DNA of 64,000 nt from an uncultured Pseudanabaenaceae cyanobacterium (lineage in GTDB: Bacteria; Cyanobacteriota; Cyanobacteriia; PCC-9006; JAAUQQ01), in the NCBI GenBank assembly GCA_937949725.1, contig CALECT010000054.1:19213-83212 (forward strand). Reading direction: 5' to 3'. Below are positions 9,064 through 53,700 of the stretch, in pieces (the stretch's first letter is position 1; each line of letters opens with the position of its first letter). Made by a program: the position numbers and the translations under genes. The notes under the pieces were generated by a model, which searched no databases, had not been told where the DNA came from, and saw nothing but the letters and a program-made list of their open reading frames with translations.

Positions 9064-9795
9064 TTACTGACCAATAATTGCCTTCCAGGCAAAGAGCGGC
9101 AGCGCTAACATTCGCTTCCAGCGCCAGGGCTCCTGGTACAAGCGATAGACCCACTCCAAGTTGTTGTCGCAGAAAAACTTGGGAGCCCGAATTTTATTGC
9201 CTGACCAAATATCGAAGCTACCGCCGCAGCCAATCCAGATGGCGTTAGGGCAGACTTGGCGATGCTGTTGAATCCATTGCTCCTGACGGGGAACCCCTAG
9301 ACCAACGAGGATGAGCTTGGGTTGCTCTTGCTCCAGCTTTGCGAGTAGCTCCGCTTCGCCCTCCGCTTGGATGTAGCCGTCGCTGATTCCCGTGAAATTA
9401 ATGCCGGGGGCTCGTCGCTGCCATTCCACTGCTGCGGCATCGGCCACACCGGGTTTTCCGCCGTAGAAGTAAACGGGCCAGCCTTGGGAGCCCGCTCGGC
9501 GCAGCATTTCTTCGGATAGTTCAATACCAGGGCAGCGCTCGACGGGCTTGCCACGGAGTTTGAGGTAGAGGACAACCCCCGCACCATCGGGGATTACGAG
9601 GTCAGCTTTGTTGATGACATCGGCTAGGATGGGGTCCTTTTCGGCAGCGATCGCCATTTCGGCATTGAGCGTCACCACGTGGATACTGTCGCCTGCATTG
9701 AGGCGATCGCTCAGCCAGTCGGGATAACTTTGAAGAAGTTGGATGGGCAAACCCAACACTGTAGTCGTTTCGGGGCGATTGCTCAGGGCAGTCAT
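9064..9795 (-). CDS. WecB/TagA/CpsF-family glycosyltransferase
   Basis: 243 aa. Family-typical VVTLNAEMAIAAEKDP...ADLVIPDGAGVV and LILVGLGVPRQEQWI. Confidence 0.85.
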   Translation of the reverse strand: MTALSNRPETTTVLGLPIQLLQSYPDWLSDRLNAGDSIHVVTLNAEMAIAAEKDPILADVINKADLVIPDGAGVVLYLKLRGKPVERCPGIELSEEMLRRAGSQGWPVYFYGGKPGVADAAAVEWQRRAPGINFTGISDGYIQAEGEAELLAKLEQEQPKLILVGLGVPRQEQWIQQHRQVCPNAIWIGCGGSFDIWSGNKIRAPKFFCDNNLEWVYRLYQEPWRWKRMLALPLFAWKAIIGQ

Positions 9796-10044
9796 CAGTC
9801 TCTCCGGCAGCAGCAGACTCTGGGTTAAGCAACCGATTTGAGCCGGGACTATTGTGACTTAAATTGCCAGAATTGCAGGGGCTTTTTCTCGGGTTCCACC
9901 GAATTTTCAGTCTTACCAAGCCTGAGCATTTCCCCCAAGAGTTTCAGGAATGCGGGTGGCAGAGATGAAAAAGACTTGTTAGACTGCCATCAACAAGCGG
10001 CCCAGCTGCACAAGATTTATCGGGCGCAATTCGCCCAATCATCA

Positions 10045-10101
10045 ATGACTAGCACCCAGCGCTACAACTTTTTTTGGTTTATGGAGGTTCACCGGAAGTG
10101 A
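10045..10101 (+). CDS. Candidate 18-codon leader peptide MTSTQRYNFFWFMEVHRK (aromatic-codon cluster)
   Basis: ATG at 10045 and TGA at 10099-10101. Five of six consecutive codons (10063-10080) encode Tyr, Phe, Phe, Trp and Phe. The ORF ends inside the antiterminator arm and lies upstream of the DAHP synthase. Confidence 0.45.
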   Translation: MTSTQRYNFFWFMEVHRK

Positions 10102-10138
10102 GGCTCTAGTTAGCCTGTCACAAACTTCTCGGTGAACC
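10086..10138 (+). promoter_or_regulatory. Candidate antiterminator helix overlapping the leader ORF end and the terminator left arm
   Basis: 10086-10098 (GGTTCACCGGAAG) pairs with 10125-10138 (CTTCTCGGTGAACC): 13 Watson-Crick pairs and one bulged T at 10129. It shares nt 10135-10138 with the terminator stem. Confidence 0.5.
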
Positions 10139-10163
10139 GCAGTCCAAGGGCTGCGGTTTTTTT
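10135..10163 (+). terminator. Intrinsic terminator 70 nt upstream of the DAHP synthase start codon
   Basis: AACCGCAG (10135-10142), 8-nt loop, CTGCGGTT (10151-10158), running into a T7 tract (10157-10163). Confidence 0.7.
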
Positions 10164-10232
10164 ATGGTCTAAAAGCCTCCCAATCCTCATTACTCCTTCT
10201 CTTTCAACCCGCTTCAATCCAGGATTATTTCC

Positions 10233-11105
10233 ATGAAACCCGCTCCCCTTGTTGGCCGCAATAGCTCCAAAATTCAAGATGCCTCCCCAACCACTGTTCA
10301 AGTCGGCAACGCCACCATTGGCGGAACAAACATTTTCATCGCTGGAGGTCCCTGTGCTGTGGAAAGTGCAGCGCAGCTAGAAGCGATCGCCAATCACCTC
10401 GGCCCCAATCGCGGCAACGGTCATATCCAAGCCCTACGCGGCGGCATCTACAAACCCCGAACTTCGCCCTACGATTACCAGGGCATGGGCCAAGACGGCC
10501 TATCACTAATTCTCAATGTTAGCCAGCGCCATCACTTGCCCTTCGTTACCGAAGTTATGGCCATTGACCAAATTGAATCCCTCAGCGCCCATGCCGATAT
10601 GCTTCAGGTCGGCAGCCGCAATATGCAGAATTTCGACCTGCTCAAGGCCTTGGGCAAGGTCAATAAGCCTGTGCTGTTGAAGCGTGGCCTGGCCGCGACG
10701 ATTGAGGAATTCGTTATGGCGGCAGAATATATCGCCAGCCATGGTAATTCCAATATTGTGCTCTGCGAGCGGGGCATTCGTAGCTTCGACAGCTACACCC
10801 GCAATGTCTTGGATATTGGCGCGGTTGTGGCACTCAAGCAGCTCACTCACTTGCCAGTGATTGTGGATCCGAGCCATGCGGCGGGTCGGCGGGAGCTGGT
10901 GGCCAGCTTGAGCCGCGCTGCGATCGCTGCCGGAGCCGATGGCCTGATCATCGAATGTCACCCCAACCCTGACCAAGCTATTTCTGATGCCCAGCAAACG
11001 CTGTCATTGGAAGCCATGGCTGAGCTGGTGGAAAGCCTCAAGCCCATTGCCACTGCTGTAGGCCGCAGAGTTGCTGAGCCTCAGCGGCAATTGGTTGCAG
11101 CCTAG
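10233..11105 (+). CDS. 3-deoxy-7-phosphoheptulonate (DAHP) synthase, class I-beta (KDOPS-like)
   Basis: 290 aa. IAGGPCAVES, KPRTSPYDYQGMG, LLKRG and IVDPSHAAGRRELV motifs typical of the short bacterial DAHPS/KDOPS fold. Confidence 0.85.
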   Translation: MKPAPLVGRNSSKIQDASPTTVQVGNATIGGTNIFIAGGPCAVESAAQLEAIANHLGPNRGNGHIQALRGGIYKPRTSPYDYQGMGQDGLSLILNVSQRHHLPFVTEVMAIDQIESLSAHADMLQVGSRNMQNFDLLKALGKVNKPVLLKRGLAATIEEFVMAAEYIASHGNSNIVLCERGIRSFDSYTRNVLDIGAVVALKQLTHLPVIVDPSHAAGRRELVASLSRAAIAAGADGLIIECHPNPDQAISDAQQTLSLEAMAELVESLKPIATAVGRRVAEPQRQLVAA

Positions 11106-11116
11106 GCCCAAAAACA

Positions 11117-11148
11117 AGACACCGGATGCTTTAAAGCACCCGGTGTCT
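11117..11148. terminator. Hairpin between convergent genes
   Basis: AGACACCGG (11117-11125) pairs with CCGGTGTCT (11140-11148), plus an inner TGCT/AGCA pairing. Confidence 0.5.
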
Positions 11149-11190: not shown

Positions 11191-11856
11191 CTATTTCAGC
11201 AATTCAATGTTGGTGAACAGAAACTCAGCCGTAGGTGCACTGCCATCTTTGGGAGTGATAGCACGACGGTTGAGGACGGAATAGCCTTCGACCTTTTCGT
11301 ACTCGTCTTCAAACAGGCTGACACCGCTGGTTGGCTCGCCGGTTTTGGGGTCGGAATAGACCGAGTCGTACTTATGGGAGAGATAGCCTTCGCCGGTTTG
11401 GTGGCTGCTCTGGGTGTGGATGGTGACGACGGTGCCATGCATGTGGCGATGGACCAAGGTGACTTCGTTGCCGTTGCCCTTGTCGGTGACTTCGTAGCGA
11501 TCGCCCTCGGCCCCGTTGGTAATCATCAGCTCAACAGCACCATTCTCTTTGGTTTCGCCATATTCAAAGCTGTTCTTAGCGTGGGTCTTGTCAAAGGGAC
11601 GGCGCACCCGGTGGATTGCAGTTTCCCACAGTTGGTTTTTAACCGCCTTAAAGACTTCCTCATCTTCAATGCCGGTGATTTCACCCGAAAAGCCCATGCG
11701 AGGATCGGGAGAAACCTTGGCCTTGCCGTGGAATTCAGCATCACCACATTTATAGGTCACATCTGCGGTGTAGCCAGGAAACTTCTCATCCCAGGTGTAG
11801 CGGTTGTCGTAGGCGGTACGGAAAAAGTCTTTGGCAGCAGTTTTTACAGCAGTCAT
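11191..11856 (-). CDS. Conserved cyanobacterial/plastid-lineage hypothetical protein (probably DUF3386)
   Basis: The ATG at 11856 gives MTAVKTAAKDFFRTAYDNRYTWDEKFPGYTADV, which matches my recollection of the DUF3386 N-terminus. Confidence 0.7.
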   Translation of the reverse strand: MTAVKTAAKDFFRTAYDNRYTWDEKFPGYTADVTYKCGDAEFHGKAKVSPDPRMGFSGEITGIEDEEVFKAVKNQLWETAIHRVRRPFDKTHAKNSFEYGETKENGAVELMITNGAEGDRYEVTDKGNGNEVTLVHRHMHGTVVTIHTQSSHQTGEGYLSHKYDSVYSDPKTGEPTSGVSLFEDEYEKVEGYSVLNRRAITPKDGSAPTAEFLFTNIELLK

Positions 11857-11964
11857 ATATCTTCTTTCGTCGGTGGCTTTCCCATTAGTGTAGCGCTTGG
11901 GCCTATCCAAGGAAGTACGGGCAGTTCTACAAAACAGGGAGGATGTGACTGAGCCAGAAGCCTC

Positions 11965-50717: not shown

Positions 50718-53700
50718 ATGAAAATTTTCCAACGCCGTTCCCAGTCTGAGTCCCCCGCCAATGCAAGCGGCCCTAAGAAAATCGACGATCGCCTCCAGGA
50801 GGTTTTTGTCTACGACGAAGGCGAGCTACCCAATGCGGCTAGCGTTCAGAAGCGACCCCAACTCGCCGCTAGCAAGACTCAACCCAACGCAGCGCAGGCA
50901 TTGGAGGTGAGCCCCAACGGCAATTACGTCCAGAACTTACGCAAAAACGGCGGTGACCGCACCTATTCACCCAACTCATCAGCTCCAAACAGTCAAGGAT
51001 CTTCAGCAATGGCAGGCGACAACAGCAAATTCATCACAGTTCCCTACTCCCTCATGCCCGCCCAGGGCACTGGTCAGCCTCAAGAAAGTGCAGCGGATAA
51101 TATTCCCAATCGGCAGCAGATTGAAGAGGCTGTGATGACCGCTGTGCAGCAGCATGTGCGCACTGATGCGATGAATCAAGAAGGACTCAAACAGCTCCGA
51201 GCCCAGGTTCAAACCGTGGCTCTGGATATTCGCAGTGCCAAAGATCGCGAAGCAGTGATGAAAGCTGCGGTCTTTAAAACGCTGGAAGCCCTTGGGGCCG
51301 ATCGCGTTACGTTCTACCGCTGTACCTCCCCTGAACAGGGATTGGTAGAAGCCGAGGCTGTGGTTCAAGGCTGGACGCCAGCGCTGGGAGAGTATTTGCC
51401 CCTTGTCTTCCTGGGTAGCGGAGATATAGAGGACTATCAGAAGAATCAAGTCCTGGCCTTTAGTCGCGATCAGGAAATTGAGTTGTCGCCTTATCAGCAC
51501 CAGCTGATGGATAAGTATCAGGTCAAGGCCAGTCTGTCTTTACCTGTAGTACTCAATGAAAAACCCTGGGGTTTCCTAGTGGTTCATCAGTGCAAGCAGG
51601 AGCGCCAATGGCATGATTTTGAAATTGATCTGCTCTATCAGATCGTCACTGAAATTCGCCTGAAGCTGCAAGCGCTGGAATTTGAATTTGAATTTCAACA
51701 ACAGGTTGACCATGGCGCGGCCTTGGTTAAAGTCATTGAGCAGATTCAACGAGCTGAAGGAGTAGAGGGCATTTTCCGCACTGCCACCTCTGCCATTCGC
51801 AAAGCCCTGAATTGCGATCGCGCTGTCATCTATCAGTGCAACGAAGACTGGAGTGGAAAGGTAGTTGCCGAAGCCGTCGGCAAAGGCTGGGTTTCCATCC
51901 TCAAAGAACAGGAACGGGATCAAGCCTTTTGCAGCTACATCCTGCCGGACAATTGCTCCTTCGTAAACCTCTATCCCGATGATGAGCAAGTCATCACTTT
52001 CGAAAAGGACAATGCACTCTTCCGGGCCACCAATGGCGGTCAATTCAACCATGGCGTTCCCTACCGCAAGGTTGATGATGTCTATGCTATGGGCTTCTCG
52101 GATTGCTACATCGAGACCCTAGAGAAGTTCCAATGCCGGGCCTATATCCACGCCCCCATTTTCCAAGATGGCAAGTTCTGGGGCATTCTCTGCGCTTACC
52201 AAAACAGCGGTCCTCGCAAATGGACCATGGGTGAAGCCAGCTTGATGGTCAACTTGGCGACCCCGCTCAACACTGCCTTGCAAATGTCCCGCACGGTCCA
52301 GCAAGTCAAAGACCAAACGAACGAACTCTTTGAAGCCGCTAAGCGTGAACAACTGGCCAGCAGCATCATTGATCGCATTCGCGGCAGCTTTGACACGGAC
52401 CAGGTCTTCAAGGTGACGACGAAGGAAATTCGTCGCTTTATGAACTGCGATCGCGCCGTGATCTACAAATTCCATCAGGATTGGAGCGGTACTTTCGTGG
52501 CCGAGTCCGTGGGCTCTCGCCTCAACTCCATCCTGGGCAAAGGCTTCAGCGCTGACATGGGCAACTGCCACAGCCTCACCAGCCTACGTCCCGAGGGAAT
52601 GCCGCTGGATAGCCGGGATGTGAAAATTGCGGAAATCAGCATTAAGGAAGGCCGGGATTACAACCGCAGCGGTTTCTTCCTTGATGACATTGAGGCCCAT
52701 GACCTACCCGGCGACTTCATGGAAGCCATGGATGGCATTGGTGCCCGTGCCTATATGATGACCGGCATCTTCGTAGGGGACAAGCTGTGGGGAATGCTGG
52801 CGGTCTACCACGGTGAGATTCGTGCTTGGCAAGAAGGAGACCGTAAGCTGATTGCTCAAATTGCAACCCAGTGTGGTGTCGCCCTACAACAAGCCGAATT
52901 CGTCACAGAAATTCAACAGAAATCCGCCGAACTCAGCAGCGTTGTTTCCCGCGAGAAGGCAGCCAAGGAAGAATTCCAGCGGGAAGTTGTGGAACTGCTC
53001 CGCGCCGTCGCTCCCGCCCTGCGCGGTGACCTCACCGTTCGCGCCCCCGTCACCGAAGACGAAGTCGGCACCGTGGCCGACGCTTACAACAACACCATCC
53101 ACGCCCTGCGCAGCATCGTGGTCCAGGTGAAGGAAGCAGCGACCCAGGTTAGCTCCACTTCTAAGACCAGTGGTGAGGCGATCGCCCACCTCTCGAACAA
53201 GGCTCAAAAAGAAGTTCATGTGGTCCAGAAAGCTCTGACCGAAATTCAGAGCATGCAAGGCGCAACCGAAGAAGTGGTCACCACCGCCCAAGGGGTTGAA
53301 GCTGCGGTTCAGCAGGCCAACCAAGTGGTCAAGCGCGGTGACAACGCCATGGACCGTACTGTGGACGGCATCATGGCCATTCGCTCCACTGTGTCCGAGA
53401 CCAGCAAGAAGATTAAGCGCTTGAGCGAATCTTCTCAAAAGATTTCCCGCGTGGTCAGCCTGATTGGTGACTTCACCACCCAGACTCAGCTGCTGGCGCT
53501 GAATGCGGCAATTGAGGCGACCCGTGCTGGTGAATACGGCCGAGGTTTCGCAGTGGTGGCTGACGAAGTCCGCTCCCTGGCTCGCCAGTCCGCTGAAGCG
53601 ACGACGGAAATCGAGAAGTTGGTCCAGGAAATTCAGGCTGAAACCAGCGCGGTAACCCAGGCCATGGACACGGGCATTGACCAGGTGGTCAGCGGTACCA

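Follow-up and report, generated by a model that had tools for sequence, protein, structure and literature searches.

How does a cyanobacterium set the flux through its shikimate pathway? The question is raised by a locus on a contig of an uncultured Pseudanabaenaceae cyanobacterium (CALECT010000054.1), of which we analysed a stretch of 64,000 nucleotides (nt), called the window here. Upstream of a gene for 3-deoxy-7-phosphoheptulonate (DAHP) synthase, the enzyme that opens the synthesis of aromatic amino acids, and on the same strand, lies a short open reading frame (ORF) crowded with aromatic codons, followed by two potential RNA helices that share nucleotides, the second of which is an intrinsic terminator. 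We propose that this element is a ribosome-mediated leader-peptide transcription attenuator, which would set read-through into the DAHP synthase gene by the supply of charged Tyr, Phe and Trp tRNAs; judged from sequence comparison and folding models, we consider this very probable. The comparative evidence strongly supports the reading: the features themselves are read directly on the DNA, and the mechanism is what we infer from them.

The leader region upstream of DAHP synthase

The element and the gene that it would regulate are laid out as follows.

10045..10101, + strand: leader ORF of 18 codons and a UGA stop (ATG at 10045, TGA at 10099-10101), product MTSTQRYNFFWFMEVHRK, from a reading of the sequence of 9700-10420
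10063..10080, + strand: candidate regulatory codon cluster Tyr-Asn-Phe-Phe-Trp-Phe (TAC AAC TTT TTT TGG TTT), five of six codons aromatic
10086..10098, + strand: 5′ arm of helix A (the putative antiterminator), GGTTCACCGGAAG, spanning the last codons of the leader directly 5′ of the stop codon
10101..10116, + strand: inner hairpin within helix A, 5 base pairs (bp) with a 6-nt loop, from the minimum-energy fold
10125..10138, + strand: 3′ arm of helix A, CTTCTCGGTGAACC, with T10129 bulged and the final AACC common to the terminator
10135..10163, + strand: intrinsic terminator, stem AACCGCAG(TC)/(GG)CTGCGGTT, with seven T ending at 10163, from a terminator scan
10060..10161, + strand: full-length match to R1, the covariance model of the family described below (71.4 bits, E = 1.7e-16)
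10233..11105, + strand: class I-beta DAHP synthase, the presumptive regulated gene, 290 amino acids (aa), catalytic core only (NF006421, TIGR01361)

Helix A comprises 13 Watson-Crick pairs between 10086-98 and 10125-38, with T10129 bulged. In the terminator, AACCGCAG occupies 10135-42 and CTGCGGTT 10151-58, the seven T run from 10157 to 10163, and the generic terminator scan found this same hairpin independently. The T tract ends 69 nt before the ATG of the DAHP synthase gene. An earlier, model-made note on this DNA (the original prediction) had placed the ORF, the codon cluster, helix A, the terminator and the downstream gene at these coordinates, and all of them were confirmed on the sequence. 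Its naming of the gene as a class I-beta DAHP synthase agrees with the scores against two class I-beta models, NF006421 (385 bits, cut-off 335) and TIGR01361 (349 bits). The protein covers only profile positions 73-336 of the 338 in NF006421, and the N-terminal extension of the profile is absent.

The 131-nt region that holds the element (10040-10170) folds with a z score of -2.97, and none of 200 shuffles was as stable. Within the 64-kb window the leader is the sole ATG-started short ORF with at least five aromatic residues in six followed by a T-run, and the scan found no comparable aromatic-rich short ORF elsewhere in the window. The pattern GTGRRCCGCRG has one exact match in the window, the element itself; its five one-mismatch matches are within chance expectation. 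Likewise, the element is the only significant match to R1 in the window; a second match at 51202-51275 (13 bits, E = 0.55) was taken as chance.

Distribution and gene linkage

Relatives of the DAHP synthase were searched in one genome per species, which gave 80 loci, nearly all cyanobacterial. They include Gloeobacterales (L062) and the non-photosynthetic Obscuribacterales/Melainabacteria (L004, L017, L018, L028, L042, L059 and L061); the closest comes from a Pseudanabaenaceae metagenome-assembled genome (MAG) and encodes a DAHP synthase 97% identical in protein sequence. Short ORFs rich in Phe, Trp and Tyr (F/W/Y) were sought in the 500 nt that precede each gene. A peptide search found homologues of the leader, 16–20 codons long, upstream of DAHP synthase in 69 of the 80 loci, and when non-ATG starts were allowed this leader, which we call type 1, was present in 73 of the 79 loci with usable flank. 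The family ranges from Gloeobacterales to Nostocales and Obscuribacterales, and its consensus reads x3-6-Y-F-Y-F-W-F-x-(E/V/A)-V-H-(R/L)-x-stop.

Metagenome contigs were scanned with an exact pattern of the terminator core, which matched 86 loci. Ten of these were unrelated terminators with no leader and were set aside; the other 76 carry the leader, and 69 of them have a DAHP synthase gene within 2 kb downstream. The remaining seven have less than 600 nt of downstream sequence and no DAHP synthase match. Thus, every copy with enough flank (69 of 69 in metagenomes and all of those in genomes) precedes DAHP synthase on the same strand, and in these sequences the type 1 motif is strictly linked to this one gene. 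Another metagenome pattern, GGTTCACNNNNNNGTGAN{15,45}GTGAACCGCAG, gave no matches even though loci found by other means contain it, which probably reflects a limit of the pattern engine. The covariance model R1 was built from 59 members of the family with the clade of the window excluded, and it is this leave-clade-out model that gives the match listed above.

Six Obscuribacterales copies (L042, L052, L059, L061, L089 and L090) have a type 1 leader that starts with GTG (VSNFGFYFWYLEVRQG). Two loci with other titles, L023 (an Actinomycetota MAG) and L052 ('bacterium'), have typical cyanobacterial or Obscuribacterales leaders, and L037 (also 'bacterium') was detected by the nucleotide core pattern only and not by its leader peptide. 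The elements of L023, L037 and L052 adjoin DAHP synthases that are 64–70% identical to that of the window, so these bins are probably mislabelled or contaminated.

Conservation of the leader codons

To describe the leader at codon level we compared 125 distinct family cores, numbering codons from the conserved Val codon (0). The counts, all of 125, are as follows.

Codon -8: Y 78, F 27
Codon -7: F 95, Y 22
Codon -6: Y 96, F 25
Codon -5: F 101, Y 11, W 9
Codon -4: W 115
Codon -3: F 91, Y 15
Codon -2: variable
Codon 0 (Val): GTT 123, GCT 2
Codon +1 (His): CAC 118, CGC 7
Codon +4 (stop): TGA 119

Positions -8 to -3 are each aromatic in at least 84% of the cores. They swap among Y, F and W (TAY, TTY and TGG), and the synonyms TAC and TAT are both seen. 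Insertions and deletions within the leader ORF are multiples of three, those that lengthen the aromatic run being 3 nt long, and the start codon, the frame and the position of the stop are kept across the family. The N-terminal half of the peptide is not conserved. At the Val and His codons, the synonymous third positions are fixed, and the non-synonymous changes to GCT (Ala) and CGC (Arg) are matched by the partner base in the 3′ arm of helix A; the constraint there is therefore on the RNA helix and not on the peptide. Together, the comparative evidence strongly supports the view that the leader is translated and that selection preserves its aromatic codons.

The stop codon is embedded in a conserved G-UGA (10098-10101 in the window), kept in 119 of the 125 cores. 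It is kept even in L071, in which an earlier TAG is the functional stop.

Covariation of the two helices

Pairing was counted on an alignment of 65 sequences (A1). Helix A is paired in 90.7% of cells and 7 of its 13 pairs are double-changed, values that none of 500 shuffles reached; in slid registers only 33–53% of cells are paired. The terminator is paired in 99.4% of cells and has three double-changed pairs. Both expectations of the original prediction for relatives are therefore borne out, with compensatory changes in each helix and a conserved short ORF of clustered F/Y/W codons, seen at 73 of 79 loci in genomes and at 76 in metagenomes.

The nucleotides that the two helices share are the most informative. 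The column of A10136 reads UA59/CG4/UG2 when paired in helix A and AU59/GU4/GC2 when paired in the terminator, and that of A10135 reads UA59/UG6 and AU59/GC6, respectively. As these shared columns change with both of the alternative pairings still possible, both pairings are maintained, and the alignment supports the view that both helices, and their alternative pairing, are real. The RNAalifold consensus contains full helix A and a truncated terminator. In L006, helix A has no bulge. The inner hairpin recurs at the same site throughout the family with variable sequence (for example, TCCA...TGGA or GTTTCC...GGAAAC), and the internal loop, the inner hairpin and the terminator loop all vary freely, leaving no conserved unpaired pocket. 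We found no conserved pairing of the kind that a classical third helix would give, whether of the inner region or of the N-terminal codons of the leader with either terminator arm.

The terminator stem CCGCAG/CUGCGG is almost invariant, though it lies outside the overlap with helix A. Two candidate sources of nucleotide constraint were considered and rejected. A mini-hairpin UUCAC-loop-GUGAR in the 5′ arm, as the source of the conserved GUGA, was weak and unsupported, and a role for the palindromic stem of the terminator as operator DNA bound by a dimeric repressor was rejected on account of a half-site spacer that varies from ~7 to 12 nt.

A second leader in relatives

In about 74 of the 79 loci (for example, L054:2280-2410, L043 and L071), a second aromatic leader lies between the first terminator and the DAHP synthase gene. 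This type 2 leader typically reads x-S-W-F-Y-G-F-Y-F-W-P-R-x-S-S-G-stop (for example, MTYFSNWFYGFYFWPRANSG), with the aromatic block W-F-Y-G-F-Y-F-W (alignment A2), and is unrelated in sequence to type 1. The leader ends in GUUCCGGGU, which repeats the 3′ arm of the type 2 terminator; both pair with ACCCGGAAC, and the resulting antiterminator spans the whole 5′ arm of the terminator. The two type 2 helices covary (93.1% and 93.8% paired, with four double-changed pairs each), and the stop codon is not fixed, UAA, UAG and UGA being interchangeable.

Where both occur, type 1 always lies upstream of type 2 (40 of 40). Type 1 stands alone only in the window, where 10164-10232 holds no type 2 element, and in its nearest relatives L001, L002, L003, L006 and L078; type 2 stands alone in six loci (L014, L019, L048, L051, L070 and L077). 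The two types are alike in their gene target, their logic, the use of the leader's 3′ end as an antiterminator arm, the intrinsic terminator and the covariation of both helices. They differ in sequence (GUUCCGGGU / ACCCGGAAC / GUUCCGGGU for type 2), in the full-arm antiterminator of type 2 and in its unfixed stop codon. On this sequence evidence, type 2 is an independent second design, and it supports the mechanism of the original prediction: the antiterminator arm is supplied by the 3′ end of the leader, and termination is favoured once a ribosome has come to the stop codon.

In the six Obscuribacterales loci with GTG-started type 1 leaders (L042, L052, L059, L061, L089 and L090), the second leader is unusually long (41–43 aa) and ends in SSSYYWYFFFAVRESPGQV.

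Proposed mechanism

We propose that a ribosome translates the 18-codon ORF as RNA polymerase proceeds along the leader. With aromatic aminoacyl-tRNAs plentiful, the ribosome would reach the UGA at 10099-10101 and cover and unwind the 5′ arm of helix A (10086-98). The 3′ arm would then be freed: AACC (10135-38) would pair with GGTT (10155-58), and the full terminator of 10–11 bp, abutting the U tract, would stop transcription near 10163. Were any one aromatic tRNA scarce, the ribosome would stall within 10063-10080, just short of helix A, which would form first and hold AACC. The terminator would be cut to a 6-bp hairpin, with GG between hairpin and U tract, and polymerase would read through this truncated form so that DAHP synthase would be made. 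A single run that mixes Tyr, Phe and Trp codons would make the sensor multivalent, which suits an enzyme that feeds all three branches.

The hallmarks of leader-peptide attenuators are present in the element: a leader ORF, codons for the products of the pathway, an intrinsic terminator, a competing antiterminator and, in silico, the appropriate ribosome geometry. An upstream 1:2 protector or pause hairpin is missing from the consensus fold, which contains helix A, the inner hairpin and the terminator only. This absence is an architectural difference that is compatible with membership of the class; with no such hairpin, an untranslated leader should default towards read-through. Cyanobacteria have no Rho homologues (PMC13613805), and an intrinsic terminator is therefore the expected route.

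Helix A starts 5 nt past the last aromatic codon in essentially all members, a position immediately past the point at which a ribosome stalled on these codons would end. In the Boltzmann model, the ribosome was represented as a mask under which RNA is unwound as far as 11 nt beyond the first base of the P site, a figure assumed from published ribosome helicase work. The predicted family-average probabilities that the overlap lies in helix A or in the terminator are as follows.

No ribosome: helix A 0.61, terminator 0.37
Ribosome stalled with the A site 6 codons before the Val codon: helix A 0.58, terminator 0.41
Ribosome stalled with the A site 4 codons before the Val codon: helix A 0.67, terminator 0.32
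Ribosome stalled with the A site on the last aromatic codon: helix A 0.28, terminator 0.69
Ribosome at the stop codon: helix A 0.00, terminator 0.96

The model thus reproduces what the original prediction had proposed, with a ribosome at the stop codon giving the terminator (0.96) and a stall at the early codons leaving helix A favoured (0.58–0.67). A stall on the last Phe codon favours the terminator (0.28 against 0.69), so the regulatory codons would not all be equally effective.

Energetics and points against the model

Constrained folds place the two states close together. For 56 of the 65 sequences the antiterminator state is the more stable, the mean difference being 1.2 kcal/mol; its energy in the window is -35.9 kcal/mol, against -34.7 kcal/mol for the terminator state and -16.7 kcal/mol for the terminator alone.

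Several observations weigh against attenuation as we have described it. The overlap of helix A and terminator is AACC (10135-38), 4 nt only, and in the minimum-energy fold of 10040-10170 the two coexist, helix A with 11 bp and the terminator with 9 bp, each trimmed at the junction. With states within ~1 kcal/mol of each other, the folding model predicts that equilibrium would give only partial antitermination, and the model does not account for how a near-isoenergetic 4-nt overlap yields useful regulation. A ribosome that stalls with the last Phe codon in the A site would, by prediction, leave helix A open at its GGTT end. TTT makes up ~93–95% of the Phe codons in the leaders of the family and 51% of those in the window's long ORFs; this bias suggests selection for a wobble-read codon or for U-richness, and part of the apparent codon conservation could be U-richness at the RNA level. 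The near-invariance of CCGCAG/CUGCGG and of G-UGA is not explained by the attenuation model. On sequence reading, no Shine-Dalgarno motif precedes the leader ATG. Finally, the candidate promoter of the leader transcript at 9956-9985 (see below) was not called by a generic promoter scan and comes only from an alignment of five sequences.

The small overlap and the near-isoenergetic states imply that switching must be largely kinetic. Trapping of AACC by the earlier-made helix A would do most of the work, and the model needs it. The original prediction had called the two structures mutually exclusive: the shared AACC and the dual covariation uphold their competition, whereas strict exclusivity fails, as both shortened helices coexist in the minimum-energy fold.

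Alternative explanations

Three other explanations of the element are, even when combined, unlikely in our estimate. In the one that we weigh most heavily of the three, although still as improbable, the nascent peptide would arrest the ribosome in the manner of TnaC: leader peptide and free aromatic amino acid would together hold it at the UGA, with helix A open, and termination would be enhanced when aromatics are abundant, either alone or on top of codon sensing. The terminator state needs just such a ribosome, dwelling long at the stop; UGA is the stop in 119 of 125 cores with the preceding G also kept, Trp hardly varies, and x-E/V-V-H-R/L-x at the C terminus has the look of a conserved peptide. 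The V-H conservation, however, lies at the nucleotide level, with Val-to-Ala and His-to-Arg changes accompanied by RNA compensation; the residues on either side of V-H, from the end of the aromatic run onwards, are variable; and type 2 leaders use UAA, UAG and UGA interchangeably. The element also lacks the conserved C-terminal amino acids and the Rho-dependent termination downstream that mark the TnaC type. As an add-on to codon sensing, TnaC-like arrest at the conserved UGA is attractive.

We give less credence again to a riboswitch or RNA-binding regulator, that is, a switch controlled by a bound ligand or protein in which the short ORF is incidental or secondary. GGUUCAC, GUGAACCGCAG and CUGCGGUU are invariant in nucleotide sequence rather than freely covarying, the near-isoenergetic conformers could be tipped by a bound factor, and the strong TTT bias suggests a nucleotide-level constraint in the codon run. 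Such a switch would leave unexplained why the start, the frame, the stop position and three-base insertions and deletions are conserved, and why swaps among TAY, TTY and TGG preserve amino-acid class but not sequence. No unpaired pocket is conserved, the internal loop, the loop of the terminator and the inner hairpin being free to vary; no Rfam family matches the element even at E up to 10; and the sequence-unrelated type 2 element of relatives keeps the same logic of ORF plus switch. Least probable of all, and in our view very remote, is that the ~170-nt terminated leader transcript acts mainly in trans, as a small RNA or micro-protein gene whose position is not cis-regulatory. Two reports state in general terms that terminated leader transcripts of other bacteria can be stable and act in trans (PMC12612679, PMC7298713), and the element is equipped with a strong terminator and with a candidate promoter of its own. 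Against this, linkage to DAHP synthase is strict, holding for every genome copy and for all 69 metagenome copies that have sufficient flank; element and gene share an orientation, with no intervening promoter evident; the codon content fits the products of the pathway; and the N-terminal half of the peptide lacks conservation.

Relation to known systems

Among known systems of ribosome-mediated attenuation, the reading that we prefer, the closest are the enterobacterial pheL-pheA and trpL-trpEDCBA (Rfam Phe_leader and Trp_leader), and the element shares with them a leader ORF with codons for the end products, an intrinsic terminator before the gene, a competing helix and a decision made by ribosome position. 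In Escherichia coli attenuators the distance from the stop codon to the end of the terminator, ~60–70 nt, is similar to that in the element. The architectures differ. The trp and pheA leaders form 1:2, 2:3 and 3:4 helices and their overlap is a whole arm, whereas the element has two helices, uses the 3′ end of the leader as the antiterminator arm and overlaps its terminator by 4 nt. An untranslated leader should accordingly favour read-through here and termination in trp and pheA. Their codon runs are for one amino acid and precede a terminal-branch operon; the run here mixes Tyr, Phe and Trp, precedes DAHP synthase and lies in a cyanobacterial host. When the original prediction assigned the element to the enterobacterial trp/pheA type, it was thus right in principle and not in architecture, as there is no 1:2 hairpin.

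Two reported leaders stand before DAHP synthase genes. A putative attenuator leader peptide with Phe-Tyr-Phe has been described for aroF (cg1129) of Corynebacterium glutamicum (PMC4046766). It resembles the element in lying directly upstream of a DAHP synthase gene and in its mixed aromatic codons (PMC4046766); compared by description only, it differs in its actinobacterial host, in having three aromatic codons with no Trp reported and in serving one of two DAHP synthases. The uORFC-13-1 motif upstream of aroF in Acholeplasma was read by its authors as ribosome-mediated attenuation (PMC8632094). It too combines a conserved upstream ORF with Phe codons, an adjoining intrinsic terminator and a 3-deoxy-7-phosphoheptulonate synthase gene (PMC8632094), and it differs in being restricted to one Tenericutes genus (24 representatives), in having, instead of a Y/F/W block, a U run that codes for one Phe or more, and in its RNA structure. 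The Rfam scan of the window gave no match to uORFC-13-1.

Searches of databases returned no known family. An Rfam cmscan of 9500-10500 at E up to 10 gave three unrelated chance matches of 12.6–15.2 bits, none overlapping the leader, and in the same interval there was no match to the amino-acid leader families (Trp_leader, Phe_leader, His_leader, Leu/phe leader and others). None of the NCBIfam leader-peptide models matched the window peptide (extended to 22 aa) or the peptides of three relatives at E up to 10, and the leader peptides of six relatives (20–22 aa) are absent from a collection of 15 billion proteins. A 2016 survey of leader genes reported no reliable data on attenuation in cyanobacteria (PMC4833913), and our full-text literature search of papers open without subscription found no later report of a cyanobacterial aromatic leader peptide. 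As far as this reaches, the remark in the original prediction that attenuation of aromatic biosynthesis is not established in cyanobacteria still holds. The phylum-wide type 1 family therefore appears to be undescribed; the kind of mechanism, attenuation as in trp, pheA and his, is known.

Implications for the shikimate pathway

Leader-peptide attenuation is textbook knowledge in Proteobacteria and Actinobacteria, and the 2016 survey marks a gap in cyanobacteria (PMC4833913). The family described here supplies a concrete case, found across the phylum, tied strictly to one gene and backed by covariation, and would explain how cyanobacteria set the flux of the shikimate pathway. The 290-aa core of the DAHP synthase leaves no room for an added regulatory domain; unadorned class I-beta DAHP synthases are often not feedback-inhibited.

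The wider distribution raises a larger idea, for which we see even chances. The element may be part of an ancient and undescribed attenuation system that forms the main transcriptional gate on carbon entry to the shikimate pathway across Cyanobacteriota, normally with two different multivalent Tyr/Phe/Trp attenuators in series, and reduced to one stage in the lineage of the window. If so, tight coupling of transcription and translation would operate in cyanobacteria, and the invariant CCGCAG/CUGCGG and fixed G-UGA would point to an extra constraint, such as release-factor kinetics or a bound factor. Even for the single element, the proposed mechanism implies functional transcription-translation coupling in a phylum without Rho. 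In practical terms, the element would offer a compact natural part that responds to aromatics and a target for removal in cyanobacteria engineered to overproduce them. As there is no matching Rfam or NCBIfam model, addition of the family to RNA and small-ORF annotation resources is warranted.

Upstream region and neighbouring genes

The gene upstream of the leader (9064-9795, minus strand) encodes a WecB/TagA/CpsF glycosyltransferase and is divergent, so the leader needs a promoter of its own within 9796-10044. An alignment with relatives points tentatively to one candidate.

9956..9985, + strand: candidate promoter of the leader transcript, with a -35 GTGGCA (9956-61), an 18-nt spacer, TG (9977-78) and a -10 TAGACT (9980-85)

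It aligns with TTGACA...TGTTACCTT in L078 and TTGACG...TGTTAGGGT in L006, at equal distance from the leader, and both of these relatives have a better -35 box than the GTGGCA of the window. We hold this assignment, which predicts a start near 9990-9993, with low confidence; together with the terminator it would tentatively predict a terminated transcript of ~170 nt. AGGA precedes the ATG of the DAHP synthase gene.

A GC-rich hairpin, GGGCG-CAATT-CGCCC, lies at 10022-10036, with its 3′ end 8 nt from the leader ATG. Besides the window, only L001 and L002 have it, and the wider family does not conserve it; it might modulate the initiation of leader translation.

Downstream, the DAHP synthase gene (end at 11105) converges with a minus-strand ORF at 11191-11910 that has no NCBIfam match. 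Between the two, at 11117-11148, lies a strong 14-bp hairpin with a T-run on the minus strand, which is probably the terminator of the ORF at 11191-11910 and may act in both directions.

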